Shown piece after piece: positions 7,397-37,518 of a DNA stretch of 61,163 bases. Every line of letters starts with the position of its first letter. Position 1 is the stretch's first letter. Made by a program: the position numbers and the translations under genes. Under the pieces are notes generated by a model that searched no databases, was not told where the DNA came from, and saw only the letters and a program-made list of their open reading frames with translations. Source of the stretch: Chloroflexota bacterium (GTDB lineage Bacteria > Chloroflexota > Limnocylindria > Limnocylindrales > CSP1-4); the NCBI GenBank assembly GCA_042408925.1, contig JBHOQO010000075.1, forward strand, positions 1 through 61,163, read 5' to 3'.

Positions 7397-9133
7397 TCAG
7401 CCGAGGGGATGCGCGGCCCGCAGCCGCCCGCCGGTCGTCACCGCGCCCTCCGAGGCCGACGAGACGAGGGCCGCGTACTTGGCGAGGGCGCCGCTCCGAT
7501 AGCGAGGCTCCGGCGGTCGCCAGGCGGCCCGGCGGCGTTCGAGCTCGGCCGGATCGACGAGGAGATCGAGGCGCTTGGCGTCGACGTCGATCTCGATGAG
7601 GTCGCCGTCCTCGACGAGGGCGATCGGGCCGCCGAGGGCGGCCTCCGGGGCGACGTGGCCGATCATGAGGCCGTGGGTCCCGCCCGAGAAGCGGCCGTCG
7701 GTCAGGAGGGCGACCTCGGGCCCCAGGCCCTCGCCGACGAGGGCGGCGGTGACGCTCAGCATCTCCTGCATCCCCGGCCCGCCGACCGGGCCCTCGTAGC
7801 GGATGACGATGACGTCGCCGGGTCGGATCTGCTGATTCTTCACGGCCTCGAAGCAGGCGGGCTCGGAGTCGAAGACCCGGGCCGGGCCGCGGTGGTGGCG
7901 GCGTTCGTGGCCGGCGAGCTTGATGACGCAGCCGTCCGGGGCGAGGCTGCCGCGCAGGATCGCGAGGCCGCCGACCGGCTTGAGCGGTCGTTCGATGGGG
8001 ACGACGACCTCCTGGCCGGGCGTCTCGACGGCGGCGGCGGCGATCTCGGCGATCGTCCGCCCGTCGACCGTCCGGCACGATCCGTGGAGGAGGTTGCGCT
8101 TCAGGAGCTCGCGCATGACGAGGCCGACGCCGCCGGCCTCGTACATGTCCGCCGCCGTGAACCGCCCGCCGGGTTGCATGTCGGCGACGATCGGGGTCCG
8201 GTCGGCGATCCGGCCGAAGTCGTCGAGCTCGAGGGGGACCCCGAATTCGTGGGCGATGGCGAGGAGGTGGAGGACGGCGTTCGTGCTGCCCCCCGTCGCG
8301 GCAACCGAAGCGATGGCGTTCTCGAGGGCCTCGCGGGTCACGATGGAGGACGGCCGGATGTCGTGGCGGACGAGGCTCATCGCGATCTCGCCCGTCCGCC
8401 GGGCGGCCTCGTCTTTCGCCGGGTCCTCGGCCGGGATCCCGTTGAGGCCGGCCGGGCTGAGGCCGAGGAACTCGAGGGCGGTGCTCATCGTGTTCGCGGT
8501 GTACTGGCCGCCGCAGGCGCCGGCCCCGGGGCAGGCGACGTTCTCGATCTCGTAGAGCTCCTCGAGGCTGATCTTGCCGGCCCGGTAGGCACCGACGGCC
8601 TCGAAGACCGTGACGATCGTGGCGTTCCGGCGACCCCGATAGACGCCGGGGTAGATCGTGCCGTTGTAGAGGACGACGCCGGGGACGTCGAGACGGCCGA
8701 GGGCCATCGCCGCGGCCGGGATCGTCTTGTCGCAGCCGACGAGGCAGACGAGGCCGTCGAGGAGGTGACCGCGAACGACGAGCTCGATGCTGTCGGCGAT
8801 GACCTCGCGGCTGACGAGGGACGCCTTCATCCCCTCGGTCCCCATCGAGACGCCGTCGCTGACGGCGATGGTGTTGAACTCCATCGGAGTGCCACCGGCG
8901 GCCCGGATCCCTTCCTTCACGAACTCGGCGAGGCGACGCTGGTTGTAGTTGCAGGGCATCGTCTCGATCCAGCTTGTGGCGACGCCGACGAGGGGCTTCG
9001 AGAGGTCCTCGTCGGTGAAGCCGATCGCCTTGAGCATCGCCCGGGCCGGGGCGCGGTCGGGGCCTTCGGTCAGGGCGACGCTGTGGCGCTTCGCCGGGTC
9101 GGGGGGGCGGTGGTAGGGGTGGGGGTCGGGCAT
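7397..9133 (-). CDS. ilvD: Dihydroxy-acid dehydratase
   Basis: [60 protein letters not shown] 9133. Confidence 0.97.
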
Positions 9134-10041
9134 CGTGGGTCGTCCTCGCGTGGCTGGGCACACTCTGGCGGAGCCGGTCCGGGCCGACTCGGAGGTCGCC
9201 GGCCGACCGCTTCGCGCTGGTCTCGCCTCCAGTCTAGGCCGCGGGACTGTCTTCGGTCACCCGCGATGGTCACGTCGCTCCCTCGTCGGGGAGCCGGGCG
9301 ACGCCGTTGCCCGGCCTGCGCACCGGCCCGGCGTCTGGCAGGCCGCCGTGCGCGCGGGCCCGGGGTCCGCTCGTGTCGTGCCGCTCGAACGAACCAGATC
9401 CCCGCCAACGGTCCTTGCGGTGCGCGGAGCCAGGCCCGAACCGCCCGAGTCCGTGCCGGGAGCGTCGGGCGCAGGACGTCCTCGAAGCGGTCGACCTTGG
9501 CCCGCAGACCGGAGCGGTCCGGGAGGACGACGAGGCGGGCGACGGCGGCCGGTCGCCAGCCCCGCTCGGGCGCCAGGACGGCGACGGCGATCCGCGCCTT
9601 CCGATCGAGGGAACCGAGGAGGTCCTGGAGGTCGACGAGGTCGGACTTCACCTCGACGACGAGGAGCGCCCGAGCCTCGGGATGCCAGGCCACTAGATCG
9701 ATGGCGCCGCGCTCGCCGAAGTGGTTGAAGGTCCACTCGTGGAGGACCTCCCAGCCGAGCGCCCGGAGGATCGCCGTCGCGGCGGCCACGATCTCGGCGT
9801 GGTCGGCATCGAGGAGGCGGTCGAGCTCCGGGCCGCGCCACCGGACTCGAACCTCGAGGGAGGCGCCGAGGGCGCCGAGGACCGCTCGGAGGGCTCGGAT
9901 CGTCGTCGTCTCGAGATCGCCTCGTTCCAGGCGCGAGACTTGCTGCTGGCTCTGCTTCGCTCGCAGCCCGAGCTGGCGCTGGCTCAAGCCGAGCCGGAGT
10001 CGGATGACGCGGATGGTTCTGCCGATGCGGGCGCTGTCCAT
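9070..10041 (-). CDS. XRE-family HTH fused to PD-(D/E)XK-like nuclease domain, with long Arg-rich tail
   Basis: [28 protein letters not shown] (XRE HTH), then GAIDLVAW...LVVEVKS (D...ExK). The tail overlaps the ilvD start by 64 nt. Confidence 0.8.
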
Positions 10042-10200
10042 GGCGCGGAGTGTCGCCGCGGCCCCTCACCGCCCGCGTATCGGGGGTGGATCCCACCTCT
10101 GGCGGCGCACCCTGCCCCGGCTCCCGCCGCGGCCGCCGATCGGCCGCGCTCCCTCTGGATGGACTGCGCTGCAGTCTCATCACGGTCGCTCATCGGCCGC

Positions 10201-10649
10201 GGCACCGCGCCCGGGCCGCCGCTCGCTCCGTCCGGGCCGCGGATCTTCTCGGATACTCACCCGGGTAGTGAACCGCGCAACGCCCGCCTCGTTTTCCACC
10301 CCCGCCACCCCGATGCCGAGCGTGGCCGGTCGGCGGGTCGCCGGCGCGAGCCCGTGCGTTGTCGGCGATTACTCCCAGGGCTGGTACCTCGGAAGATCCG
10401 ACCAGCGGTTCACTACCCCGGGGCGTATTGTGGAAGTTCCGCCCCCTCGGCCCGGCCCGTCACTCGCCCCGCTAGTAGCCTGGAAATTGCGGGCTCGCGG
10501 CCGGCGGGAACGAAACCGACCTCCAGCGGCTCGCAGCCGTCACTCGCCCCGGTAGTAGCCTGGAAATTGCGGGGCCGCCGGCGGGCGACGCCGGTCGTGG
10601 ACCCTCCGGCGGTGCCCGGCGGGCGCTCGTACCGTGGACGGTTCCAGCG
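10201..10649. repeat. Dispersed ~449 bp structured intergenic repeat, copy 1
   Basis: Near-identical to 19528-19975 (offset 9327); first 138 nt identical. Internal 24-nt imperfect inverted repeat (10253-10276 / 10405-10428) and 37-nt direct repeats (10457-10493, 10537-10573). Confidence 0.95.
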
Positions 10650-10654
10650 CGCTG

Positions 10655-11869
10655 CTATCGCCGACGCCCATCCACATCCTCCGGCGCCGGATCCGCGGAG
10701 CTCGCTCCCTCTTCCGCGGCGACCGGCTCTTCCGCGGCGACCGGCTCCGCCGGCGACGTCCCGGCAGGCCCGGCCTCGCGACCGCCCGCCAACCCTCGGA
10801 AGGCGACACGGCGCCGCGGCAGCGTGGCCGCGACGCCTCGGAGCTCGGCCCACGAGAGCTCCCGCTGACCCATGATCCCGCCGGGGCGGAAGACGATGAC
10901 GAGGATGAAGAAGGCGGCCAGGAGGATGCCGCTCATGCCGTAGAGCAGGGTGGCATCCTCGATCCGCCGGAGCGCCTCGGCGATGGCAACGACGGCCACC
11001 GTACCGAGGATGGAACCGTTCACCGATCCCATCCCGCCGACGACGAGCATCGTGATGACTCGGAACGTCAGGTCGAAGTAGAAGACGGTCGGCGAGAAGG
11101 ACGTGATGAAGTGGGCGTAGAGGGAGCCGGCGACCGCCGTGAAGAAGGCGCTGACGACGAAGGCGACGAGCCGGGGTCGAAGGATCGAGACGCCCACGGC
11201 CTGGGCGGCCCACCGGTCGGCCCGCTGGGCGAACATCTCCCGCCCGAGCGAAGAGTGCTTCAGACGCCAGGCGACGAGGACGGTGACGACCGCCCAGCCC
11301 CAGGCCCACCAGGCGTTCGTGTACGGCGTGACGTTCGAGAAGGTCCGCGATCCCCGGGTGAAATCGTCAGCGTTGAAGAGGATGACCCGGACGATGACGA
11401 GGAACCCCAGGGTGGCGACGGCGACGAAGTGACCCGAGAGCCGAAGGAGGACGGCCCCGACGACGAGGGCGAGAGCGGCCACGAGGAGGCTGGCGAGGAT
11501 CGTCGCCGCCAACCAGCCGACCGGGAGCGGTCCGAGCATCTGATCGAAGTGGACGCCTGCCAGCCAGCCGGGAAGGCGCGGTAGGTAATCGGCCTTCTCG
11601 CGCAGGGGGAGCGTCAGGATCGCCGAGATGTAGGCGCCGAGGGCCATGAAGCCGATGTGGCCCAGCGAGAAGACGCCGGTGAACCCCGAGGCCAGGTTCA
11701 GGCTGACGACCAGGATCAGGAAGATCGCGAGGTTGATGGCGAGCCCCTGCCAGAAGGCGAGCCCCGACACGTCGAGCAGGGCGAGGAAGACGCCGAGGAG
11801 GACGAGGAGACCGATCGCCGGTCCGGAACGCCGGTTGCCGGCCGCCCCGCCCGCTGCCGGACGGCTCAC
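10655..11869 (-). CDS. livM: Branched-chain amino acid-type ABC transporter permease (LivM-like)
   Basis: LNLASGFTGVFSLGHIGF, LRLSGHFVAVATLGF, VVGGMGSVNGSILG. Confidence 0.88.
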   Translation of the reverse strand: MSRPAAGGAAGNRRSGPAIGLLVLLGVFLALLDVSGLAFWQGLAINLAIFLILVVSLNLASGFTGVFSLGHIGFMALGAYISAILTLPLREKADYLPRLPGWLAGVHFDQMLGPLPVGWLAATILASLLVAALALVVGAVLLRLSGHFVAVATLGFLVIVRVILFNADDFTRGSRTFSNVTPYTNAWWAWGWAVVTVLVAWRLKHSSLGREMFAQRADRWAAQAVGVSILRPRLVAFVVSAFFTAVAGSLYAHFITSFSPTVFYFDLTFRVITMLVVGGMGSVNGSILGTVAVVAIAEALRRIEDATLLYGMSGILLAAFFILVIVFRPGGIMGQRELSWAELRGVAATLPRRRVAFRGLAGGREAGPAGTSPAEPVAAEEPVAAEEGASSADPAPEDVDGRRR

Positions 11870-12837
11870 GGTGTCTCCTCCCGGGCGGCGCGGAGGATGC
11901 CGTTCGGGCGGAAGAGGAGCATGAGGATCAGGAAGACGAACACGAAGGCGTCCCGGTAGCTCGCGAGCCCGGCGGGGAAGAGGGTCGCCAGGAGGTCGTG
12001 GACCGACGGGGAGACGGATCCCGGCGGCAGGATGTCGGCGATCCCCGCGAGGGCGGTGGGGATGACCTCGAGGAGCCCGAGGGCGTACCCGCCGACCACG
12101 GCCCCGGTGAGGCTGCCGAACCCGCCGATGACCGCCGCGATGAAGGCCTTGAGGACGGGGGTAAACCCCAGGTACGGGTTGATCTGGCCCGCCTGGGAGG
12201 CGTAGAGGAAGCCGGCGACGGCGGCGAGCCCGGAGGCGATGGCGAAGGCCGTCGCCACGACCCGGTTCACGCGGATCCCCATGAGCTGGGCCGCGGTCAG
12301 GTCGTCGGCTGCCGCCTGCATCGACAGCCCCAGGCGGGTACGCGTCACGAAGAGACTGAGGAGGATGAGGAGGATGACCCCGCTGCCGAAGCTGGCGACG
12401 TTCACGCGCGGAATGGTCAGGGGCCCGAGGGCGACGACGCCATCGAGGCCCGGGGGCGCCGGGAAGGCGATCTGGATCGGCTGGCCCGCCAGCCGACTGA
12501 CGAGGAGGACGCCGTTCTCCAGGATCTGGCCGACCGCGAACGAGGTGAGGAGGACGGCGACGTCCGGCGCCCCGCGGATCGGGCGATAGGCGATCCGCTC
12601 CATCGCCAGACCTACCAGGACGGTCCCGGCGACCATGACCACGATGGCGGCCGGTAGCGGGAGACCGGCGAAGAGGGCGAAGGCCGCCAGATAGGCGGCG
12701 ACCATCATGATGTCGCCGTGGGCGAAGTTGATGAGTCGGAGGATCCCGAAGATCATCGCCAGGCCCACGGCCATGAGCGCGTAGAGGCTGCCGGCGCTGA
12801 GACCGTTGACGATCTGCTGGAGAACGTAGACGTCCAT
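11866..12837 (-). CDS. livH: Branched-chain amino acid-type ABC transporter permease (LivH-like)
   Basis: QQIVNGLSAGSLYALMAVGLAMIFGILRLINFAHGD, KAFIAAVIGGFGS. Confidence 0.9.
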   Translation of the reverse strand: MDVYVLQQIVNGLSAGSLYALMAVGLAMIFGILRLINFAHGDIMMVAAYLAAFALFAGLPLPAAIVVMVAGTVLVGLAMERIAYRPIRGAPDVAVLLTSFAVGQILENGVLLVSRLAGQPIQIAFPAPPGLDGVVALGPLTIPRVNVASFGSGVILLILLSLFVTRTRLGLSMQAAADDLTAAQLMGIRVNRVVATAFAIASGLAAVAGFLYASQAGQINPYLGFTPVLKAFIAAVIGGFGSLTGAVVGGYALGLLEVIPTALAGIADILPPGSVSPSVHDLLATLFPAGLASYRDAFVFVFLILMLLFRPNGILRAAREETP

Positions 12838-12840
12838 CGC

Positions 12841-13542
12841 CTAGTGCCCCAGGTACGACTGCTCGATGCGGGGATCGTGTCGGAGCTCGGCCGCCGGCCC
12901 GCTCAGCGTCACCCTGCCGGTCTCGAGGACGTAGACGCGGTCGGCGACGTCGAGGGCGTGGTGGACGTTCTGCTCGACGAGCAGAATCGTCAGGCCCTCG
13001 CCCTTGAGCTCGGCGATCGTCCGGAACACCTGCTCGACGATCAGCGGGGCGAGCCCGAGCGACGGTTCGTCGAGGATGAGAAGCCGTGGGCGACTCATGA
13101 GGGCACGGGCGATGGCGAGCATCTGCTGCTCCCCGCCCGACAGGGTCCCGGCGGCCTGCCCCAGTCGCTCGTGCAGGATCGGAAAGAGCGATTCCATCCG
13201 CTCGATGTCCCGCCGAACCTCGGCCGGGGGCCGCTGGATGCCGCCGAGGATGAGGTTCTCGCGGACTGTGAGCCGGCCGAAGACCCGGCGTCCCTCCGGA
13301 CAGTGGCTGATCCCCATCGCGACGATCTCCTCCGGCGCCGCCCGGGTGATCGCCCGGCCGAGGAACCGGACGACCCCAGCCCGTGGGCGAACGAGGCCCG
13401 AGATGGCCCTGAGCGTCGTCGACTTTCCGGCGCCGTTCGATCCCAGGATCGCGACGAGCTCCCCTTCGGCGACGTCGAGCGACACGCCGTGGAGGGCCCG
13501 GATGCTCCCGTAGGCGACCTCGAGGTCGCGGACCTCAAGCAC
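12841..13542 (-). CDS. livF: ABC ATP-binding protein (LivF-like)
   Basis: GSNGAGKST, HCPEGRRVF, LSGGEQQML, LDEPSLGLAP, VEQN. Confidence 0.93.
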   Translation of the reverse strand: MLEVRDLEVAYGSIRALHGVSLDVAEGELVAILGSNGAGKSTTLRAISGLVRPRAGVVRFLGRAITRAAPEEIVAMGISHCPEGRRVFGRLTVRENLILGGIQRPPAEVRRDIERMESLFPILHERLGQAAGTLSGGEQQMLAIARALMSRPRLLILDEPSLGLAPLIVEQVFRTIAELKGEGLTILLVEQNVHHALDVADRVYVLETGRVTLSGPAAELRHDPRIEQSYLGH

Positions 13543-14350
13543 TGCGAGCCTGCCCGATGTAGGCGGCGATGACGTCCGGGTCGTTGCGGACCGAGGCCGG
13601 GTCCCCGTCGGCGATGAGGACGCCGTGGTCGAGGACCTGGATCCGCTGGCAGAGGTTCATGACCAGTGGAATGTCGTGGGCGACGAGGATGATCGTCAGG
13701 TCGAGCTGGTCCCGGAGCTCGCGGATGAGGGCGAGGAGGTCCGCCGTCTCAGTCGGATGCATCCCGGCGTTCGGCTCGTCGAGGAGGAGGAGCCTCGGCC
13801 GCGACGCGACCGCACGGGCGATCTCGAGCCGTCGCTGATCGCCGTACGAAAGGCTGTGGGCCGGCCGGGCGGCGAGATCGCGAAGGCCGACGAGCTCGAG
13901 GAGCCCCAGGGCCTCGTCGTGGATCCGCTCCTCCTGGCGACGGTAGGTCCTCGTCGAGGCGAGGGTGGCCCAGAGTGAATAGCGATAGCGGCGCTGGACG
14001 GCGACCTTGACGTTGTCGATGGCCGTGAGGTCCCCGAAGAGGCGGATGTTCTGGAAGGTGCGCGCGATCCCCAGCCGGGCGACCTCGGCGGGCGGGCGGT
14101 GGGTGATCTCCCGCCCGTCGAGGTAGATTGCCCCGCTCGTCGGGCGGACCATCCCGGACAGGAGGTTGAACAGCGTCGTCTTCCCGGCTCCGTTCGGGCC
14201 GATGACGCCGTGGATGATCCCCGCCGGGAGGCGCACACTGTAGTCGGACAGGGCGAGGAGCCCGCTGTAGCGCTTCGTGAGGTGGCGAACCTCGAGCAGC
14301 GGCGAACGATCGTCTTCGGGTACGGTCACCACCCGATCCTCCTGGGACAT
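13535..14350 (-). CDS. livG: ABC ATP-binding protein (LivG-like)
   Basis: GPNGAGKTT, ARTFQNIRLF, LSYGDQRRLEIARA, LLDEPNAG. ATG 14350. Confidence 0.93.
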   Translation of the reverse strand: MSQEDRVVTVPEDDRSPLLEVRHLTKRYSGLLALSDYSVRLPAGIIHGVIGPNGAGKTTLFNLLSGMVRPTSGAIYLDGREITHRPPAEVARLGIARTFQNIRLFGDLTAIDNVKVAVQRRYRYSLWATLASTRTYRRQEERIHDEALGLLELVGLRDLAARPAHSLSYGDQRRLEIARAVASRPRLLLLDEPNAGMHPTETADLLALIRELRDQLDLTIILVAHDIPLVMNLCQRIQVLDHGVLIADGDPASVRNDPDVIAAYIGQARSA

Positions 14351-14626
14351 CGGACTCCGGACCGGGGTCGGAGCTCGCCGGGGCTTGGCGTCGGTGGCGC
14401 CGAGCCCGCTCCGGCTCACCCCCGAGCACGACCTCCGCGGTCGGGAGCGTGATGGCGGCGACTATCGCATAGGCGCCGGGGAGCGTCAAACCGATCGGTC
14501 GTCCTAGGGCGGCAGCGTCCCGCCTTACGCGCCGATCCCGGCTACCATCGGATGTCGTCGCCGAGACGGGTCGGGGGGCACCGTCGGCGCCCCCATGATC
14601 CATTGCCCGCCGGGCGGGAGGTGAGG

Positions 14627-15988
14627 ATGCCAACAACCATCGAGGACGTCGTCGCCCGGGCCCGCGAGGACGGGATCCGCCTCGTCCGCTTCCTGTACTG
14701 CGATCCGTCGGGGATCATCCGCGGCAAAAACGTCCACATCGACCTGTTGGAGGCCCGGATGCGGGGCGGCGTCGGGCTGACCCGGGCCCAGAACGCCATC
14801 AACCTCCTGGAACAGCTCGTTCCGGTCGAGGGCATGGAGCCGGTGGGCGAGATCCGGATCGTGCCCGATCCGGAGACCTACTCGCGTCTGCCGTGGGTGC
14901 CACGGACGGCGAGCCTCATCTGCGACCAGCTCGATCACAGCTGGCAGGACTGGGGAGCCTGCTCGCGGAGCTTTCTCAAGCGGGCGATCGCCGCCGCCGC
15001 CGACGCCGGGATTGTCGTCAAGGCGGCCTTCGAGAACGAGTTCTACCTCGCCGAGGAGGTGGACGGCGAGATCCGGCCCTACGGCAACGGACCCGTCTAC
15101 TCGTCGGCCGGGATGGACCGGGTGGCGCACGTCATCGACGACATCGTGGCGGCTCTCGAGGTCCAGGGGATCGTCGTCGAGCAGGCGATCAACGAGTACG
15201 GAGCGGGCCAGCAGGAGATCGCCGTCCGGTACAGCGATGCGCTCCGGGCTGCCGATACCCAGATCAAGCTTCGCGACACCGTCCGCGGTGTCGCCGAGGT
15301 CGGGCACGGCCTCGTCGCGACCTTCGCGGCCAAGCCGTTCGGCGACCAGATCGGCTCGGGGGCCCACATCCACTTCAGTCTCTGGTCCGTCGACGGACGA
15401 GACAACCTCCTCTACGATCCGGCGGCCGGCCCCGGGTTGGTGTCCGAGCTCGGGCGACGCTTCATCGCCGGCGTCCTCGACCACCTCCCGGCCCTCGTCG
15501 CCCTCACCTGCCCCAGCTACAACTCGTACGAGCGGCTGCGGCCCCAGGCCTGGGCCGGCTCGACGGTTTCCTGGGGGCCCGACAACCGGGAGGCGGCCCT
15601 CCGCGTCGTCTCGCCGTTCCGGGGCCGCGAAGAGGAGTCCACGAACCTGGAGCTCAAGACCTGCGATCCCAGCTGCAACCCGTACCTCGCCCTCGGCGGC
15701 CTCATCCACGCCGGTCTCGACGGGGTCCGGCGCGGTCTCGAGCCGCCCGAGCCCGCCCTCCACGACCCGGCGCTCCTCTCCGATGAGGAGCGCCGGCGAT
15801 GCGGGATCCGGCCGCTGCCGGCCTCGCTTCGGGACGCCCTGGCGGCGCTCCAGGCCGACGACGTCCTCTTCCCGGCCCTCGGCGACCTCCTGGGGCGCTG
15901 CCTCGTCGCGGTCCGGAGTGCGGAGGCGGCGGCCTTCGAGGCGATGACCCCCGAGGCGGCCCGGCTTGCCCACCTCCGGATCTTCTGA
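14627..15988 (+). CDS. Glutamine synthetase-like gamma-glutamyl ligase (GlnA4/FluG C-terminal-like)
   Basis: FENEFYL, NEYGAGQQEI, GSGAHIHFSL, WGPDNREAALRV, ELKTCDPSCNPYL. ATG 14627 after GGAGGTGAGG. Confidence 0.88.
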   Translation: MPTTIEDVVARAREDGIRLVRFLYCDPSGIIRGKNVHIDLLEARMRGGVGLTRAQNAINLLEQLVPVEGMEPVGEIRIVPDPETYSRLPWVPRTASLICDQLDHSWQDWGACSRSFLKRAIAAAADAGIVVKAAFENEFYLAEEVDGEIRPYGNGPVYSSAGMDRVAHVIDDIVAALEVQGIVVEQAINEYGAGQQEIAVRYSDALRAADTQIKLRDTVRGVAEVGHGLVATFAAKPFGDQIGSGAHIHFSLWSVDGRDNLLYDPAAGPGLVSELGRRFIAGVLDHLPALVALTCPSYNSYERLRPQAWAGSTVSWGPDNREAALRVVSPFRGREEESTNLELKTCDPSCNPYLALGGLIHAGLDGVRRGLEPPEPALHDPALLSDEERRRCGIRPLPASLRDALAALQADDVLFPALGDLLGRCLVAVRSAEAAAFEAMTPEAARLAHLRIF

Positions 15989-16138
15989 CGCCGGGTCGCG
16001 CCGGCAGGCGCCGGGCAGGTTCCCCCGGGGACGATCCGGTTGCCGTTCGTCGGCTCGGTGCCCGATGATTGGGGCTTCCGGTATCCCCGTCCCGGACGAC
16101 GGGTCTCGGTCCGGGGTGCTCGTCGCAGGAGGTAGGAC

Positions 16139-16834
16139 ATGTTCGCCAACGTCCGCGTCGTCGATCTCACACAGACCCTCCACCCGGGGACGGTCATGTG
16201 GCCGGGAGCCCCGGCGCCGGTGGCGGACACCGTCTTGACCGTCGCCCACGACGGCTTCTACAACCGCCGCCTCACGTTCATGGAGCACAGCGGGACGCAC
16301 TTCGATGCCCCGTGCCACATGGTCGAAGGCGCCGAAACCGTCGACCAGATCGGCCCCGAGCGCCTGTTCTGCCCGGTTGCCGTCATCGACATCAGCGCCC
16401 GGTGCGCCGGCGACCCGGACGCCGTCCTCAGCCTCGAGGAAGTCCACGCCTTCGAGGCGGCCCACGGAACGATCCCGAACGGGGCAGCCGTCTTCTTGCG
16501 GACGGGCTGGGAGACCTTCAACACCGATCCTGCCCGGTACGCGGGTGCTCCGGGGCCCCTCCGCTTCCCCGGGTTCGGCCCGGAGGCAGCCCGTTTCCTG
16601 GTCGAGGAGCGGGGCGCGGTCGGGCTCGGGATCGACACCCTCGGCATCGACCCGGGGTTCGACGCCGACTTCGTCGTCCATCGCCAGATCAGCCATCCTC
16701 GCGGCGTCTGGCATCTCGAGGGGCTGGAGAACCTCTCTGCGCTGCCGCCCCTCGGGGCCTGGGTCGTCGTCGGGGTCCTGAAGACGAAGGACGGGTCGGG
16801 CGGTCCGGCTCGGGTCCTCGCCCTCGTTCCGTGA
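16139..16834 (+). CDS. Cyclase family (kynurenine formamidase-like) metallohydrolase
   Basis: EHSGTHFDAPCH (HxGTHxDxPxH), GIDTLGID, HLEGLENL, GSGGPARVLA. Confidence 0.9.
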   Translation: MFANVRVVDLTQTLHPGTVMWPGAPAPVADTVLTVAHDGFYNRRLTFMEHSGTHFDAPCHMVEGAETVDQIGPERLFCPVAVIDISARCAGDPDAVLSLEEVHAFEAAHGTIPNGAAVFLRTGWETFNTDPARYAGAPGPLRFPGFGPEAARFLVEERGAVGLGIDTLGIDPGFDADFVVHRQISHPRGVWHLEGLENLSALPPLGAWVVVGVLKTKDGSGGPARVLALVP

Positions 16835-16852
16835 CGAGCGCCGGCGGGAGCC

Positions 16853-18124
16853 ATGGCGGGGGTCCCGGCGGGCAGCGACTCGGTGGCTGAGGGCGGCAGG
16901 CGGACCGATCCGCCGGCGGGCCTCGTCGCTACGGGGCCGATCGCCGACGGACCGCGTGCCATCGCCGACGGGCCGCATCCGGAGGTCAATGACCTCCTGG
17001 CGTCGGTCCGGCTTCTCGACCACCACGTCCACACCGTCCTTCGAGGGCGCTTGTCCGCCGAACGGCTCGTCGAGATCCTCAGCGAGTCGAACCGACCCGA
17101 GGCGGCCCGGCGGGCGGGGATGGCAACCCAGCTGGGGGTCGCGGTGCGTCGCTGGTGCGCTCCCCTCCTCGGTCTCGAGGCGGGTGCCGCTGCCGAGGCG
17201 TATCTCGCGCTCCGGGCGACGCTGCCGAACACCGACGTCGCGTCCCGGCTGCTCCCGGCTGCCCGCCTGGCGGGGCTCCTGGTCGACACCGGCTACCCGG
17301 TCGACGACGCGGTGCCCCTAGACGAGCTCGGGGAGCTCGCGGCGGCGCCGGTCCGGGGCGTGCTCCGACTCGAGCGCCTCGCCGAACGCGTCCTGCGGGC
17401 GGCGGGAGCCGCCGCGTTCCCGAACGCGTTCGAGGCGGCTCTGGCGGAGGAGGGCAGGCAGTCCGTCGCCGTGAAGTCGATCGCCGCCTACCGGACGGGG
17501 CTCGACCTCGACCCCGACCCTCCGGGCCGTGCCGAGGTCGTGGCCGCGGCAGGGGCCTGGCTGGCGGCCGTCGAGCAGGGCGCGGCGCCGCGGCTCGCCG
17601 ACCCCGTCATCGAGCGGTTCCTGCTCTGGAGCGCCGTCGAGCTCGGCAAGCCGCTCCAGCTCCATACCGGGTTCGGCGACCCCGACCTCGACCTCCACCG
17701 GGCGAACCCGCTCCTGCTGACGGGGTTCCTCCGGCGCACGGAGGGGCGCCTCTGGGTCCTCCTCCTCCACACGTATCCCTTCCACCGGGAGGCGGCGTAC
17801 CTGGCGCACGTCTTCCCCCACGTCGCCTTCGATATCGGGCTGGCGATCAACCACAGCGGCGTCGGGAGCCAGCTGCTCCTCGCCGAGGTGCTGGAGATCG
17901 CCCCGTGGTCGAAGCTGCTCTTCTCGTCCGACGCGTGGGGGATCCCGGAGCTCCACCTGCTCGGGAGCTGGCTCGTCCGGCGCGGGCTCGCCCGGATCCT
18001 CGGTCGCTGGATCGTCGACGGGGACTGGCAGCTCGACGACGCCCGCCGGTTCGTCGAGCTGCTGGCCGTGGCGAATGCCCGCGAGATCTACGGGCTGGGG
18101 GACGCTGATCTCCGGCTCGCGTAG
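16853..18124 (+). CDS. Amidohydrolase family protein (FluG N-terminal-like)
   Basis: LLDHHVH, KSIAAYRTGL, QLHTGFGD, LLHTYPF, FSSDAWGIPE. Start uncertain. Confidence 0.85.
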   Translation: MAGVPAGSDSVAEGGRRTDPPAGLVATGPIADGPRAIADGPHPEVNDLLASVRLLDHHVHTVLRGRLSAERLVEILSESNRPEAARRAGMATQLGVAVRRWCAPLLGLEAGAAAEAYLALRATLPNTDVASRLLPAARLAGLLVDTGYPVDDAVPLDELGELAAAPVRGVLRLERLAERVLRAAGAAAFPNAFEAALAEEGRQSVAVKSIAAYRTGLDLDPDPPGRAEVVAAAGAWLAAVEQGAAPRLADPVIERFLLWSAVELGKPLQLHTGFGDPDLDLHRANPLLLTGFLRRTEGRLWVLLLHTYPFHREAAYLAHVFPHVAFDIGLAINHSGVGSQLLLAEVLEIAPWSKLLFSSDAWGIPELHLLGSWLVRRGLARILGRWIVDGDWQLDDARRFVELLAVANAREIYGLGDADLRLA

Positions 18125-18235
18125 CCGAGACCGGCGACGCGGAGGCGGGCCGCGGCTCGACGGCTGGCGCCGGGAACGGACGGAGTGCTACGCTACGATG
18201 CCGATCGATCCCGAACATGGAAACGGAGGAGGAGC

Positions 18236-19402
18236 ATGTTCCGTCGCCTCGTTGCCCTCGGCCTGGTGGTCGGCCTCGTCGCTGCGGCATGCAGCGGCAC
18301 CGGTGGGGGGAACACGATCAAGGTCGGCGGCGGGTTCGCGCTTACGGGTGATGAATCAGCGCTCGACCTGCCCGCCGCCAACGGTGCCAAGCTGGCCGTG
18401 AAGGAGATCAATGCGGCCGGCGGTGTCCTCGGCAAGCAGATCGACTTCATCGTCCACGACAGCCAGTACAAGATGGACGTCACCGCCCAGACGGCGAAGC
18501 AGTTCGTCGAGCAAGACAAGGTCGAGGCGATGATCGGTTACACCGACACCGACTCGGTCCTCGCTGCCGGGCCGACGTTCCAGCAGGCGGGGATCCCCTT
18601 CATCAGCGTCGGTGCGACGTCGCCGAAGATCCCTTCCCAGGTCGGCGACATGATGTTCCTCGCTGCCTTCGGTGACAACGTCCAGGCTGCCGCCGGCGCC
18701 GAGTACGCGTTCAAGAACTTCGGCAAGACCGCCTATCTGCTCTGGGACAAGGGCGTGGAGTACACGACCCTCCTGGGTGGCTACTTCAAGTCGCGGTTCA
18801 CGGAGCTGGGCGGCACGATCGTCCTGGAGGACTCGTACGACGACAAGGCCACCGATTTCTCGGCCCAGATCGCCAAGGTCAAGGCCCTGCCCCAGCAGCC
18901 GGACTTCTACTACATCGCGGCGATGCCGTACAACGTCGGTCCGGTCGTGAAGCAGTTCCGCGATGCGGGGCTGACCGGCCCCATCCTCGGCGGTGACGGC
19001 TACGACACGCCCGACCTCGTCAGCGTCGCCGGGGCGGCCTCGGACAACGTCTACTTCTCCACCCACGCGCTCATGGATGCCACGAACGGCACCGACGGCA
19101 TCAAGAAGTTCATCGCGGCCTACAACAAGGAGTACGGCCGCGACCCGGAGAACGCCTTCGCGGCCCTCGGGTACGACACCGTGTACCTGCTCGTCGACGC
19201 CATCAAGCGGGCCGGCTCTACCGACCCCAAGGCGCTGAAGTCGGCGATCGAGGCAACGAAGGACTTTCCGGGGATCACGGGGTCGATCACCTTCAGCGCC
19301 GAGAGCCACGTGCCTCAGAAGGGGGTCACGATCATCGCCGTGAAGGACGGCAAGTTCACCCTCGGCGCCGAGGTCGTTCCGGAGAAGGTTCCGGCCCCGT
19401 AG
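18236..19402 (+). CDS. ABC substrate-binding lipoprotein (LivJ/K fold)
   Basis: Lipobox-like LVAAAC, INAAGGVLGKQI, ALGYDTVYLLVDAIKRAGS, FPGITGSITF. RBS GGAGGAGGAG. Confidence 0.9.
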   Translation: MFRRLVALGLVVGLVAAACSGTGGGNTIKVGGGFALTGDESALDLPAANGAKLAVKEINAAGGVLGKQIDFIVHDSQYKMDVTAQTAKQFVEQDKVEAMIGYTDTDSVLAAGPTFQQAGIPFISVGATSPKIPSQVGDMMFLAAFGDNVQAAAGAEYAFKNFGKTAYLLWDKGVEYTTLLGGYFKSRFTELGGTIVLEDSYDDKATDFSAQIAKVKALPQQPDFYYIAAMPYNVGPVVKQFRDAGLTGPILGGDGYDTPDLVSVAGAASDNVYFSTHALMDATNGTDGIKKFIAAYNKEYGRDPENAFAALGYDTVYLLVDAIKRAGSTDPKALKSAIEATKDFPGITGSITFSAESHVPQKGVTIIAVKDGKFTLGAEVVPEKVPAP

Positions 19403-19424
19403 GCGCTCGTTCGACGCGCGCCGT

Positions 19425-19453
19425 GGAGGGGGCCGACGTCGTCGGCCCCCTCC
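19425..19453 (+). terminator. Terminator-like hairpin after the SBP gene
   Basis: 13-bp perfect stem GGAGGGGGCCGAC/GTCGGCCCCCTCC with a 3-nt loop, followed only by GCTTGT (weak U tract). Confidence 0.6.
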
Positions 19454-19527
19454 GCTTGTACCTCGACCCGGGTTCGATGCGATGGCTCCAGTCCGAGGAG
19501 CGCACGTTCGCGCAGGCCGCCCGTTCC

Positions 19528-19975
19528 GGCACCGCGCCCGGGCCGCCGCTCGCTCCGTCCGGGCCGCGGATCTTCTCGGATACTCACCCGGGTAGTGAAC
19601 CGCGCAACGCCCGCCTCGTTTTCCACCCCCGCCACCCCGATGCCGAGCGTGGCCGGTCGGCGGGTTGCCGGGCCGCCCCCGCGAATCTTCCTCGGTTACT
19701 CCTAGGGGTGGTAACTCGGAAGATCCGACCAGCGGTTCACTACCCCGGGGCGTATTGTGGAAGTTCCGCCCCCTCGGCCCGGCCCGTCACTCCCCCCGCT
19801 AGTAGCCTGGAAATTGCGGGCTCGCGCCCGGCGGGAACGAAGCCGACCTCCAGCGGCTCGCAGCCGTCACTCGCCCGCCAGTAGCCTGGAAATTGCGGGG
19901 CCGCCGGCGGGCGACGCCGGTCGTGGACCCTCCGGCGGTGCCCGGCGGGCGCTCGTACCGTGGACGGTTCCAGCG
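19528..19975. repeat. Dispersed ~449 bp structured intergenic repeat, copy 2
   Basis: Same orientation as 10201-10649. It differs mainly in a central ungapped block (19666-19714), plus a few SNPs and a 1-nt deletion. Confidence 0.95.
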
Positions 19976-20009: not shown

Positions 20010-21020
20010 CTAGAACGCGTCGAACCAGGCCTGGATCGCCTCCCGGTCGTCCGAGCGCGTGAGGGTGAGCGAGAGGAGCAGCCGCGCCTTCCAGGGAACG
20101 AGATCGCCGGCCGCGATCCAGCCCCGCGCCGCCATCGACGGACTCCGCGCCACCCGCCCCGAGCCGACCCGCGAGGCGATGCAGACGACGACCCCGGCCG
20201 CGCTCGCCCGCTCGAGCGCCGCGACCTCCCCCGGCGTCGGGTAGCCGGCGCCCGTGGCCGCGCCCACGATCCCGCGCGCCCCGGCCGCGACGAAGGCGTC
20301 GATCGCCGTCCCGTCGGCCCCGATGTACGAGACGACGACGTCGACCCGCGGGAGCCCGTCGAGCCCCCGGACGTCGAAGGGCGTCGCCGTCGTGTGCGAC
20401 CGCACCGGCCGCCCGACCCAGACGACCCGTCCATCGGCGTCGGCAACCCCAAGCGGCCCCGCGTCACGGGCGACGAAGGCGTCGGTCCGGAAGGTCGCCC
20501 CCTTCGTCACGTCCCGGGCCGACCAGATCCGGTCGTCGAGGAGGACGAGCGCGCCGAGCCCGGCTGCCCCCGGATCGGCCGCGACCCGGATCGCGTTCAA
20601 GAGGTTCAGGTCGCCGTCGGAGCTCAGAGCGGACGCCGGCCGCATCGCCCCGGTGACGACGATCGGCCGGTCGGTTCGGGCCGTCAGATGGAGGAAGTAG
20701 GCCGTCTCTTCGAGGGTGTTCGTCCCGTGGGTGACGACGACCCCCTCGGCGCCGGCAGCGATCGCCCCCTCCACCGCGCGTCCGACCTCCAGCAGGTCGG
20801 CGTCCCGGAAGGCGTGGCTCGGTCGCGGCCGGAACGGGACCTCGACGACCTCGGCGATCGAGGCCGCTTCGGGGATCCGGGCGAGGAGCTCGCCCGGGCC
20901 GAGCCGTCGCCCGGTCTCGAGATAGAAGGCGAGGTCGAGCCGGTCGGCGCCGAGGGCGTCGATGGTGCCGCCGGTGCTGATGAGGGCGATCCGGGGTCGC
21001 TCCGCCACGGCGCGCTCCAA
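20010..21020 (-). CDS. Asparaginase/glutaminase family protein
   Basis: ISTGGTI, THGTNTLEE, VTGAMRP, DGDLNL, RDVTK. TTG start. Confidence 0.88.
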   Translation of the reverse strand: MERAVAERPRIALISTGGTIDALGADRLDLAFYLETGRRLGPGELLARIPEAASIAEVVEVPFRPRPSHAFRDADLLEVGRAVEGAIAAGAEGVVVTHGTNTLEETAYFLHLTARTDRPIVVTGAMRPASALSSDGDLNLLNAIRVAADPGAAGLGALVLLDDRIWSARDVTKGATFRTDAFVARDAGPLGVADADGRVVWVGRPVRSHTTATPFDVRGLDGLPRVDVVVSYIGADGTAIDAFVAAGARGIVGAATGAGYPTPGEVAALERASAAGVVVCIASRVGSGRVARSPSMAARGWIAAGDLVPWKARLLLSLTLTRSDDREAIQAWFDAF

Positions 21021-22138: not shown

Positions 22139-22229
22139 GGCCTCCCTATGATCGCCGGTCGGCGCTTCGGCTGCACGGATTCTCCAGTCGAGCTCAGGGT
22201 CACGCCGGCCAGGTGGGGATCAGATGCGC

Positions 22230-22246
22230 TATGATGACGACATCAT
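22230..22246 (+). promoter_or_regulatory. -10 box (TATGAT) overlapped by a palindromic operator upstream of vapBC
   Basis: ATGATG-ACGA-CATCAT (22231-22246) is a perfect inverted repeat covering TATGAT (22230-22235) and reaching the ATG at 22245. Confidence 0.6.
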
Positions 22247-22514
22247 GGTGGCACGAACCCAGATCTACCTCCCCGATACCGAGCACCGAAAAGCGCGGAT
22301 CCGAGCCGCGGAACAAGGCATCTCGCTGTCGGAGTACATTCGCCGACTCGTGAGGCGCGATCTCGAAGGTGGGGGCGCGGGCTCCCCGGCGACCATCGAC
22401 GAGATCTTCGCCCTCGGTGGGGCGGGCGAGCCGACGGACGTCGGACGCGACAAGGATCGACTCGTCGGCGAGGCGATCGAGGCAGACCGGAGCGCCCGGA
22501 GCGCTGCCGGGTGA
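22245..22514 (+). CDS. vapB: Ribbon-helix-helix antitoxin (VapB-like)
   Basis: MVARTQIYLP...ARIRAAEQGISLSEYIRRLVRRDL. Stop overlaps the PIN gene start (GTGA). Confidence 0.8.
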   Translation: MVARTQIYLPDTEHRKARIRAAEQGISLSEYIRRLVRRDLEGGGAGSPATIDEIFALGGAGEPTDVGRDKDRLVGEAIEADRSARSAAG

Positions 22515-22924
22515 GCCTCTTCGTCGACACCTCGGCCTTCTTCGCGGCTGCCTACGCCGGCGATCGAAATCACCGCCGAGCGGTCGAGATCCTCCGCGGG
22601 CGGACCGACCTCGTCACGACGGACCACGTCCTCGTCGAGTCGTGGATCCTCCTTCGCCACCGGATCGGCCGCGCTGCGGCTGAGCAATTCTGGACGACCC
22701 TCCGCAGAGGCGCCGTTGCCATCGAAGCCGTCGGGCCCGCCGACCTCGAGGCCGCCTTCGCCATCGGGGACGCCTTCCCCGATCAGGACTTCTCGATCGT
22801 CGATCGGACGAGCTTCGCCGTCATGGAGCGGCTCGGCGTGGATGCCGTCGCCGCCTTCGACGACGACTTTGCCATCTACCGCTTCGGGCCCCGTCGCGAG
22901 CGGGCCTTCCGCGTCCTCCTCTAG
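22511..22924 (+). CDS. vapC: PIN-domain toxin (VapC-like)
   Basis: FVDTSAF, TTDHVLVES, FSIVDRTSF, AFDDDF (acidic PIN residues present). Confidence 0.9.
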   Translation: MSLFVDTSAFFAAAYAGDRNHRRAVEILRGRTDLVTTDHVLVESWILLRHRIGRAAAEQFWTTLRRGAVAIEAVGPADLEAAFAIGDAFPDQDFSIVDRTSFAVMERLGVDAVAAFDDDFAIYRFGPRRERAFRVLL

Positions 22925-24690
22925 ACCCGCGGGCCGGCCGCGCCCCGCGACTTGGGCACGCCACGCCTCGACGCGCCCCAGGCCGGGTCCCCGAGGACGC
23001 CATCGAGACCGAAGGCGCCAGCGACGACGCTCCGGAGCGTCGGGAGCGGAACTGCCCCCTCGCCGAGGAGGACGTCGTGGAAGCGCCGGAGGTCGAAGGC
23101 CGACCCGAGGGCCGCCTCAACGGCCCCCCGCAGCCGGAGGATCTCGAGCTGGCCCGTCTTGTAGGCGAGCGCCTGGCCCGGCCAGACGATGTAGCGGTCG
23201 ACCTCGTTGGCGATGTTGTTCGGGGCGAGGGCGGTATGGGCGGTCATGTAGGCGATCGCCTCGTCCCGGGTCCAGCCGAGGGCGTGGAGGCCGGTGTCGA
23301 CGACGAGTCGGCAGGCCCGCCAGGCGTCATACGAGAGGATCCCGAACCGATCGATCCGGCCCGAATAGAGGCCCATCTCGGCCGCCAGCCGCTCTGCGTA
23401 GAGGGCCCAGCCCTCGACGAAGGCGGTCGTGCCGAGGTGCCGCCGGAAGGCCGGCAGCCCGGCACGCTCCTGGGCGAGGGCGATCTGGAGGTGATGGCCC
23501 GGGATCGCCTCGTGGAAGGCGAGGGCTTCGGCCTCGTACCGGGGCCGGGTCGTCGGAGCCGAGCAGTTGATCCGGTACTCGCCCGGACGTCGTCCGTCGG
23601 CGGCCGGCGGCCGGTAGTAGGCGATGGTCGAGTGCTCGGCCTCGTGGTCGCCCATCGCCGCGACGACGCACGGCGCCGAGGGCAGCCGCCCGAACCAGTC
23701 GGGCAGGGCGGCCCGGGCGCGAGCGAGCGACCGCTCGGCGACGGCTCGGATCTCGTCGCCGGTCGAGAAGTGGAGCGCGGGGTCGCCGCGAAGACGCGCG
23801 ATCGTCTCGGCGAGGTCGCGAGCCCCGAGGACCCGACGACCGAGCTCGGCGAGTTCCCCGTCGATCCGCTCGACCTCGGCCCGCCCCGCGGCGTGGAGGG
23901 TCTCGGGCTCCAAATCGAGGGACGTATGGACCCGAACGAGCCGCCGGTACGTCTCGAGGCCCCCCGGGAGGTGGCAGAGCCCGGCCCGATCGTCGGGGCG
24001 GGCCCGAGGCAGGATCTCCTCGGCGAGGGTGCGGCGAAGGCGCTCGAACGCCGGCCGGATCTCCGTCTCGACGATCTCGACGAGGGCGGTCCGGAAGCGA
24101 TCGAACTCCCCGTCGGCGCCGTCGGCCGGCCGCTGCCGCCCCGGTGCCAGGAGGGCGAGGCGTCCGTTCGGCGTGGCGAGGATCGTCTCGATTTCCCCGA
24201 CGACCCGCTCGACCGGCGTCCGCGCCGCGACCAGGCCCTCGGCGAGCCCCCGCCGGAGGTTCGCCCCGTAGGCGTCGAGCCACGGGCCGATCGCCCGCCA
24301 GCGCGCGAGGAGGGTCGCCCGCTCCTCGGGCGTTCCGGCCGGCTGGACGTCGGCGAGGTTGAGCGCGGCGACCTGGGGCCCCTCGAGGGGATCGACCGTC
24401 CAAGCCCAGAGGTCGGCCTCGAGCTCGGCGAGCCGACCGCCGACGGCCTCGGCGAGGGCCGAGCGAGTCACGCCATCATCCGGCTCGGGCAACTCCACCG
24501 GATCGAGGGCCTCGAGTCGGCGGGCGAGCTCCGCCAGGCGGGCCCGTTCGGCGGCGACGGCGGCCCGAGTTCGGTCGGGGAGGCGGTCGTCGTGGCCGGG
24601 CTCGCCGATGGTCGTCGCGAAGAGAGGGTCGAAGGCGAGGGTGGCCTGCCAGAACGCCTCGGCCAGGTCGGCCAACGACGGCCGTGTCAT
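22921..24690 (-). CDS. DUF885 family (putative metallopeptidase-like) protein
   Basis: ALAFHEAIPGHHLQ, TAFVEGWALYAE, RACRLVVDTGLH, EVDRYIVWPGQALAYKTG. Confidence 0.9.
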   Translation of the reverse strand: MTRPSLADLAEAFWQATLAFDPLFATTIGEPGHDDRLPDRTRAAVAAERARLAELARRLEALDPVELPEPDDGVTRSALAEAVGGRLAELEADLWAWTVDPLEGPQVAALNLADVQPAGTPEERATLLARWRAIGPWLDAYGANLRRGLAEGLVAARTPVERVVGEIETILATPNGRLALLAPGRQRPADGADGEFDRFRTALVEIVETEIRPAFERLRRTLAEEILPRARPDDRAGLCHLPGGLETYRRLVRVHTSLDLEPETLHAAGRAEVERIDGELAELGRRVLGARDLAETIARLRGDPALHFSTGDEIRAVAERSLARARAALPDWFGRLPSAPCVVAAMGDHEAEHSTIAYYRPPAADGRRPGEYRINCSAPTTRPRYEAEALAFHEAIPGHHLQIALAQERAGLPAFRRHLGTTAFVEGWALYAERLAAEMGLYSGRIDRFGILSYDAWRACRLVVDTGLHALGWTRDEAIAYMTAHTALAPNNIANEVDRYIVWPGQALAYKTGQLEILRLRGAVEAALGSAFDLRRFHDVLLGEGAVPLPTLRSVVAGAFGLDGVLGDPAWGASRRGVPKSRGAAGPRV

Positions 24691-37025: not shown

Positions 37026-37080
37026 GGAACGCACGACACATCGCAGTCGCGCGACCTGGACCGTCGCGCGGCTCACCTCT

Positions 37081-37276
37081 GTGCCTTCTTCCATCCGGAC
37101 TGTACCGTCGGCTCCGGATTCCCACCGGTATCAGTCCCACGGCCGGCTGCGGCTGTGGGAGTCGCGGCGCTCGTCCCCCGCGTGGCTGGCGGAGGCATCA
37201 CCACCGATCGGGAATTGGGGCCACATCGAGAGCCGCAACAAGCTCCCAAAGAGCCCCTCACCCTGCCCCGAAGGCG
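37081..37276 (-). ncRNA. FMN riboswitch (RFN element) with an atypical L2 insertion
   Basis: Minus strand reads GCCTTCGGGGCAGGGTGA..[40 nt]..AATTCCCGATCGGTGGT ... GATACCGGTGGGAATCCGGAGCCGACGGTACAGTCCGGATGGAAGAAGGC. P1 is GCCTTC/GAAGGC; located upstream of ribD. Confidence 0.92.
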
Positions 37277-37518
37277 TATGCACTTATGCGCAGAGCATAC
37301 CATCTGGGTGGGTGGGCTCCGCGGGTTTGGAACGTCTCCTCCTGCTCGGTGGGCAGGCCGGTGGTGCGGCGACCGTCGACACCCACGTGGGGCGTTTTCC
37401 GAGGGGCGCAGTCGCCGTACGAAGCTCCCGGGCTTCGAGCCCGTCTCGCCGGCAATCGCATGGCATGACGCCGACCGCCATACAACCAGAGATGAGTTGA
37501 CGAACGACCCGCTGCTCC

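Follow-up and report, generated by a model that had tools for sequence, protein, structure and literature searches.

In contig JBHOQO010000075.1 of the Chloroflexota assembly GCA_042408925.1, which we analysed over its whole length of 61,163 nucleotides (nt; hereafter the window), a block of transport and catabolic genes was bracketed by two copies of an intergenic repeat element, here named E. The closest named homologues belong to Chloroflexota/Limnocylindrales metagenome-assembled genomes (MAGs), and the organism represents an uncultured high-GC lineage. As determined by repeat finding, MAFFT, blastn and global alignment, the two copies, E_A (10200–10649) and E_B (19527–19975), are in the same orientation at an offset of 9327/9326 nt. 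In the global alignment, 428 of the 450 aligned positions are the same (95.1% identity, 22 differences). Because the 60 nt of flank outside either repeat end are just 20–33% alike, the boundaries of both copies are sharp. E_A is located between the livM stop codon and the start of a gene that encodes an XRE-type helix-turn-helix (HTH) domain fused to a predicted PD-(D/E)xK nuclease domain, referred to as the HTH-nuclease gene; E_A is contiguous with the conserved upstream region of this gene and was regarded as the 'native' copy. E_B is located between the convergent ends of a binding-protein gene and an asparaginase gene. Both copies are assigned to the minus strand. The right end of E_A is 5 nt from the livM stop (10655–10657) and that of E_B is 34 nt from the asparaginase stop (20010–20012). 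These results agree with an earlier sequence-only reading of this DNA, which described two ~449-bp same-orientation copies at an offset of 9327, with right ends abutting the stops of minus-strand genes. Blastn, a regular expression for the repeat units and nhmmer all failed to identify a third copy within the window.

The region between the two copies contains eight genes. The ABC importer operon livG, livF, livH and livM (10655–14419, minus strand) was assigned from the open reading frames (ORFs), from Pfam for livM and from the annotation of the orthologous genes in L009, a contig of one relative. It is followed on the plus strand by four genes assigned by Pfam, which encode a glutamine synthetase (GS)-like ligase (14552–15988), a cyclase of family PF04199 (16139–16834), an Amidohydro_2 enzyme (16853–18124) and a Peripla_BP_6 substrate-binding protein (SBP; 18185–19402). 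The gene list proposed from the letters alone, and its description as a self-contained uptake and catabolism unit, were borne out by Pfam and by the L009 annotation. Downstream of the SBP gene, there is one GC-rich hairpin (19425–19453, plus strand), which is kept in L009 with altered stem letters and belongs to the module, not to the repeat; without a T-run, it probably serves the module as a terminator-like structure. On the far side of E_B is the asparaginase gene (20010–21020, minus strand; Pfam), the ancestral left neighbour of E as judged from synteny in L009 and in L003, a contig of a second relative. The 3′ end of livM carries a perfect 18-bp tandem repeat, CTCTTCCGCGGCGACCGG, in 2.2 copies (10709–10757), which encodes a low-complexity C-terminal tail; livM is 404 residues in length in the window and 350–398 residues in its homologues.

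No transposase, integrase or recombinase was found among the eight genes between the repeats, all of which are transport or catabolic genes, or among the neighbours ilvD, the HTH-nuclease gene, the asparaginase gene and DHOdh; nor did any of the window genes scanned with Pfam encode a transposase. The ends and flanks of the repeats also lack the terminal inverted repeats and target-site duplications (TSDs) of miniature inverted-repeat transposable elements (MITEs), and the inverted repeat that is present is internal. The alignment of the ends and flanks and the Pfam scan therefore uphold the earlier statement that neither a transposase, a TSD nor a terminal inverted repeat is visible.

In the direction of the downstream gene (minus strand), E contains four direct units of ~38 nt (a, b, c and d), one spacer of ~90 nt and one inverted unit (e). 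The unit consensus is TTCC-n4-TAC-n3-CC-n-GGG-n-AGTGA. Unit a was located by unit search at 10539–10576 (about 19865–19901 in E_B); unit b (10459–10496; 19786–19823 in E_B) is its 80-nt tandem duplicate. Unit c (10405–10442; 19732–19769) faces unit e (10239–10276; 19566–19603), the sole unit on the plus strand and the best conserved part of E; together, they form the internal 38-nt inverted repeat, whose arms are 79% complementary. Unit d (10366–10403; 19693–19730) is conserved throughout the relatives and occurs even in the short L003 element. The spacing between some units is 50–51 nt. Within the window, regular-expression and nhmmer searches found the units only inside E. The core of E, which is the part that relatives share upstream of the HTH-nuclease gene, consists of three or four direct units, the ~90-nt spacer and the inverted unit. 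The number of units is polymorphic; one strain in run X13 lacks one a/b unit, with joints that skip 80–81 nt. Lineage-specific tandem arrays, with units of ~60, 44 and 12 nt, lie between the E core and the neighbouring genes (L002:380–545, L008:5566–5716 and L015:159–242), and the edges of E seem to be hot spots for array expansion.

The differences between E_A and E_B are clustered. Sixteen of the 22 fall within 10339–10387 (19666–19714 in E_B; binomial P = 1.5e-11), a 49-nt patch that takes in the greater part of unit d and the beginning of the spacer. Elsewhere, the two copies share identical blocks of 139, 96, 78, 33 and 31 nt. The two patch alleles are mosaics of variants that are present in relatives, and in every lineage E is least conserved in this region. 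On these grounds, the idea that the patch is a guide-like hypervariable core was rejected in favour of a gene-conversion boundary, which is simpler.

In independent metagenomes, the Logan unitigs end precisely at 10200/10649 and 19527/19975; therefore, the repeat exists in the population and did not arise from the assembly of this contig. Using the unitig depth in public metagenomes that hold the window's organism (runs X1 and X2), we estimated the copy number of E. In run X2, the 450-nt repeat unitig (10200–10649) has a depth of 65.4, compared to 33.5–40 for the flank and module unitigs (~38); in run X1, the corresponding values are 28.6 and 13.4–16 (13.6). The ratios of repeat to flank depth, 1.7–2.1 in X2 and X1, correspond to about two E copies per genome and not to a dispersed family. 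Since the depth of the module equals that of the flanks in both runs, those populations carry the module in a fixed, single-copy state. One 611-nt contig of run X12 joins the SBP flank to an entire E_B-type copy with two differences; it was initially a candidate for a third context of E, which was rejected, as it represents copy B with its own flank and adapter. E has no plasmid or phage match. In a scan of genome contigs, the sole match of a 20-mer common to all four a/b units was a chance one in an Aminicenantes MAG. Exact-protein look-ups with the HTH and asparaginase ORFs of the window gave no match.

The HTH-nuclease gene (9337–10041, minus strand) was identified by Pfam, profiles, homologues, an AlphaFold2 model and Foldseek; its start (10041) is 158 nt past E_A. 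The N-terminus of the protein is an XRE-type HTH by Pfam and matches HigA2/HipB in Foldseek. The C-terminal domain contains a motif ending in LLVVEVKS and gave weak profile matches to YraN/UPF0102 and MmcB. Residues E102, D115, E130 and K132 are unchanged in all 44 homologues compared, which reach down to 40% identity. The AlphaFold2 model has a pLDDT of 93.9 and an H-EEE-H-E topology, and the C-terminal domain matches the R2 retrotransposon endonuclease, Can2 and XisH in Foldseek. Based on the invariant residues, the model, Foldseek and the profile matches together, the C-terminal domain is a predicted PD-(D/E)xK nuclease fold and is placed in that superfamily. The family comprises 330 cluster representatives at E<=1e-30, and the Pfam, NCBIfam, PHROGs and PADLOC libraries that were searched contain no family model for the C-terminal domain. 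DdiA was examined as a possible characterised relative and rejected; besides its HTH it has just a helical dimerisation tail, and it contains no nuclease domain (PMC12288472). The open frame of the gene runs on to 9070; this 323-residue frame (9070–10041) overlaps the ilvD start (9163) by 94 nt, and its extra tail is of low complexity, rich in Arg and Pro. The orthologues end after 233–255 residues.

E is present upstream of the HTH-nuclease gene in L002 (protein 87% identical), L003 (89%) and L005–7 (73–79%), and in every gene-keeping lineage for which upstream sequence is available. A more distant orthologue in L015 (54% identical), which also precedes ilvD, has E-like GGTGAGT units upstream. 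The units contain imperfect palindromic cores (ACTnACCC/GGGTnAGT); they are candidate binding sites of the adjacent HTH-nuclease, which would be the probable cognate binder.

Comparison of the same locus in the relatives revealed different arrangements. The order in L003 is DHOdh, asparaginase, ~200 nt with units d and e only, HTH gene and ilvD; the empty site with one copy that the sequence-only reading envisaged is thus found here, as a single short E with no module. L009, an NCBI MAG contig, has DHOdh, asparaginase, 254 nt, SBP, amidohydrolase, cyclase, GS-like, livGFHM, a 72-nt HTH remnant and ilvD. The remnant corresponds to HTH codons ~162–185 and directly follows the livM stop; E_A and most of the HTH gene have been deleted, with the module in the same place. 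At the E_B site of L009, there is just a possible remnant, a 20-nt stretch that is 17/20 identical to L003 at the colinear place. L010 contains livH, livM, 208 nt and ilvD, and its deletion endpoints differ from those of L009. In L002, L004 and L005–7, the order is (E-)HTH-ilvD and the contigs end in or just past the distal E; such breaks are compatible with a repeat there but do not prove it.

L009 and L010 therefore carry the module in place without the repeats, a situation that had been named beforehand as an argument against repeat-mediated mobility. It argues against such mobility in part. L009 keeps the HTH remnant and the L010 endpoints differ, which identifies the absence on the E_A/HTH side as deletion; the missing E_B of L009 may be a secondary loss too. 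The independent losses of the HTH-nuclease gene and E_A map to L009:11198–11423 and L010:2458–2664, with a new tandem array after the L009 remnant, and this pattern points to a putative recurrent loss of the HTH-nuclease gene next to the module.

The module genes of the window and L009 are 83.5–87.4% identical, the asparaginase gene is 83.7% identical, and orthologous E elements are 71–79% identical between lineages. The HTH remnant in L009 means that the module and the HTH gene coexisted in the L009 ancestor. Since the divergence of the module between the window and L009 is about that of the asparaginase gene, and in view of the remnant, the module is old at this site and lay between asparaginase and HTH/ilvD before the lineages split. 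It follows from the difference between 83–87% identity for the module and 95% for E_A and E_B that the repeats are no untouched scar of module arrival. Either the second copy of E would be much younger than the residence of the module, or the two copies would have been homogenised by gene conversion.

E also occurs away from the HTH-nuclease gene. A 26-mer from unit e retrieved L008/L011 (FWPU01003435.1), a metagenome contig with a full E core (three direct units, spacer and unit e) and flanking tandem arrays, located between a class-III aminotransferase gene and an RNase_H_2/AAA_11/12 helicase gene; no HTH-nuclease gene was found within 10 kb of it. The same aminotransferase/helicase context of E was observed in L012, from a second metagenome. 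We compared this helicase locus in contigs of runs X1, X2, X4 and X10. In the window's organism, whose genes are ~89% identical, a 13.3-kb contig of run X2 (depth 34.8) has 118 nt compared to 791 nt, and L016 and L017 have 151 nt in the place of E. On this comparison, E is an insertion/deletion polymorphism at an unrelated locus. Beyond the coding ends, the empty spacer of 151 nt could not be aligned with the filled one of 758 nt, and neither insertion boundaries nor a TSD were recognised at the helicase locus. Given its presence in a relative at an unrelated site where the window's organism has none, E is a low-copy, copy-prone intergenic repeat, more than a fixed regulatory site. The REPIN/MITE-like dispersed family suggested earlier thus holds in one respect, the tendency to be copied, which extends to an unrelated locus in another lineage, and fails in the other, as E is not dispersed in this genome.

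REPINs number in the tens to hundreds and are associated with HUH (Y1) RAYT genes. Like REP, BIME and REPIN-RAYT elements, E is a non-coding intergenic repeat with short units in two facing arms, variable in unit number and located beside a single-copy nuclease-type gene. Different from REPINs, it exists in two copies by unitig depth, with units of ~38 nt and a total length of ~450 nt; in the 61-kb window, its units are confined to the two copies, and its neighbour is an XRE-HTH/PD-(D/E)xK gene instead of a RAYT gene. With regard to the hairpin-capable doublet of two inverted short palindromic units in REPINs, units c and d face e across 90–128 nt, but four direct units stand against one inverted unit and the units are weakly palindromic. 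Integrative elements have short identical core sites, whereas the repeats here are 450 nt in length. Amplifiable units of DNA (AUDs) in Streptomyces are segments flanked by direct repeats that are deleted or amplified by unequal crossing-over. Like an AUD, the locus has a kilobase-scale segment between direct repeats of hundreds of bases, so RecA-type loss or tandem amplification would apply; unlike in AUDs, neither amplification nor deletion was observed, and the equal depth of module and flank speaks for one stable copy in the populations sampled. For the microcin H47 island of E. coli, excision and integration were demonstrated experimentally and are RecA-independent; recombination can take place in several identity blocks (Azpiroz et al. 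2011, PMC3191183). The present locus shares with H47 a functional block of ~10 kb, extensive imperfect direct repeats around it and no recombinase of its own. Different from H47, no movement was observed here, the repeats copy the upstream region of a neighbouring gene, and the block is older than the similarity of the repeats. The locus combines known kinds, namely recombinase-less gene blocks flanked by direct repeats and low-copy intergenic repeat elements.

Taken together, we give about an even chance to the following explanation: the HTH-nuclease gene has E as its native upstream array, which was duplicated across the older module; the twin copies are kept nearly identical and form a substrate for RecA-type loop-out. 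The native E upstream of the HTH gene would have been duplicated onto the far side of the older catabolic module; alternatively, E_A and E_B may have been kept alike by gene conversion, which the long identical blocks and the single unconverted 49-nt patch would fit. Direct repeats of 450 bp with identical blocks of 139, 96 and 78 nt would readily allow RecA-type recombination to delete or amplify the 9.3-kb unit; the state of L003, with asparaginase, a single E, the HTH gene and no module, is what such a deletion would leave. The earlier proposal that a 9.3-kb circle formed through the repeats could explain how the module moves survives in half: loop-out is plausible, but the repeats, at 95% identity compared to 83–87% for the module, do not record its arrival.

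Several observations weigh against this explanation. The lineages are mosaic, with the left flank of L009 closest to L003 and its right flank closest to L002, which makes tree parsimony weak; the change may have run in either direction, as the ancestors of L003 may never have had the module. In the population of the window, no excised circle and no deletion junction were found, and no read or contig spans the whole repeat with both flanks. The copy number rests on unitig depth, and diverged E copies elsewhere in the genome are possible. L013, a 52%-identical homologue of the HTH-nuclease in another context, has an upstream region of 92 nt with no array. The A/B repeat also runs ~70 nt and ~40 nt past the core that is conserved in relatives; such an overhang would be expected of a segmental copy more than of a defined mobile unit, although the FWPU copy speaks for E being discrete.

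One rival explanation takes the repeats as an integration scar and vehicle. A circle consisting of the module and one E would have joined the chromosomal E, in a Campbell-type or host site-specific, H47-like event, and the reverse reaction would excise the 9.3-kb circle. The direct orientation, the exact bracketing and the lack of an internal recombinase all agree with it, and so do the single-E empty site in L003, the possible E remnant at the E_B position of L009 and the precedent of the H47 island (PMC3191183). Moreover, the sequence next to E_A is the native HTH flank and that next to E_B the native asparaginase flank, just as Campbell integration predicts. However, a module as diverged as its asparaginase neighbour has been at the site for long, whereas its presumed scar is 95% alike, and L009 and L010 hold the module without the E_A side, L009 also without a recognisable E on the E_B side. 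No copy of the module was found at another locus, neither a circle nor a junction was detected, module depth equals flank depth, and the source of the first module-plus-E circle is left unexplained. We consider this origin unlikely.

In a second rival explanation, E is a selfish repeat with a cognate nuclease, comparable to REPIN-RAYT: the protein would bind the units, nick or cut E and drive its copying, and the bracketing would reflect a local hop across the module. This explanation overlaps with the native-array explanation but makes the enzyme causal. In its favour are the neighbourhood of E and the nuclease gene in five lineages, the invariant catalytic residues and the polymorphic unit number. 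It also fits the absence of E_A in both relatives that lost the gene (L009 and L010), the lack of a recognisable E_B in L009, whose contig covers the site, and the extra E at the unrelated locus in the FWPU metagenome, which also has the nuclease gene (L004), with an empty site elsewhere. On the other hand, there are just two copies per genome, with no TSD and no conserved termini; the nuclease family is large (330 representatives, as above), and a distant member has no array; binding and cutting of the units by the nuclease are predictions. A causal role of the enzyme is accordingly doubtful in our assessment. By analogy with REPIN-RAYT, the HTH-nuclease and E could even be a cis/trans pair with an unrelated enzyme, in which the protein would bind the units and cut or nick them, repair would copy and homogenise the element, and excisable cassettes would arise; we regard this full scheme as distinctly improbable.

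E might also be a structured non-coding RNA, a leader of the HTH gene or a small RNA, which was duplicated by chance. Its signs are the long inverted repeat of units c and e (38 nt, 79% complementary), a 31-pair c/e helix with a few double changes in RNAalifold on five orthologues, one T-A to C-G double change between the window and L002, seen by eye, and a fold z-score of −1.9 on the minus strand. However, the z-score is only −0.4 on the plus strand, the RNAalifold covariation term is unfavourable (+5.96), the helix partner unit c is missing in L003, and most helix pairs do not vary, since a single unit was copied to give both arms. Rfam gave no match over the repeat even at E<=10, no consensus sigma-70-type promoter or intrinsic terminator was found over E, and E is in none of the RNA sequencing runs searched. 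E_B is located between two convergent gene ends, with nothing to regulate. The long non-coding RNA that had been offered as one option is thus unsupported by the Rfam, folding and covariation results and by the loss of unit c in L003, and we hold it to be very unlikely. Finally, an assembly or binning artefact, in which one repeat copy or the placement of the module is a strain chimera, is hardly credible: the organism is of metagenome type, short-read graphs are interrupted by repeats of 450 nt and the patch might represent a strain allele, but all four repeat/flank junctions were found in independent runs, the repeat unitig has twice the flank depth in two studies, the X12 contig joins the SBP flank to a B-type copy, and the L009 contig independently has the module between asparaginase and ilvD with no repeats.

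Some further features of the window lie outside the bracketed block. The DUF885 gene (22921–24690) and its surroundings (22555–24678) are missing in the otherwise syntenic L003, a second indel polymorphism 2.5 kb from the repeat. A small ORF (22224–22514, plus strand) has weak NikA-like/FitA-like ribbon-helix-helix matches, and a similar gene of 89 residues is present at the same place in L003. The region 37079–37279 (minus strand) matches the FMN riboswitch RF00050 with 67.4 bits and has large insertions compared to the model.

Among close relatives, the locus exists in three allelic states: the module only, the nuclease gene and the element only, and both. If the repeats are recombination-active, they would provide an uncultured high-GC bacterium with a recombinase-free route to lose, amplify or exchange a complete unit for amine/amide uptake and catabolism. 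E is also a handle on a large uncharacterised family, in which an XRE-HTH is fused to an intact predicted PD-(D/E)xK domain and for which the unit array is a candidate DNA target. Proof of an action of the nuclease on the units would sharply raise the significance of the case.

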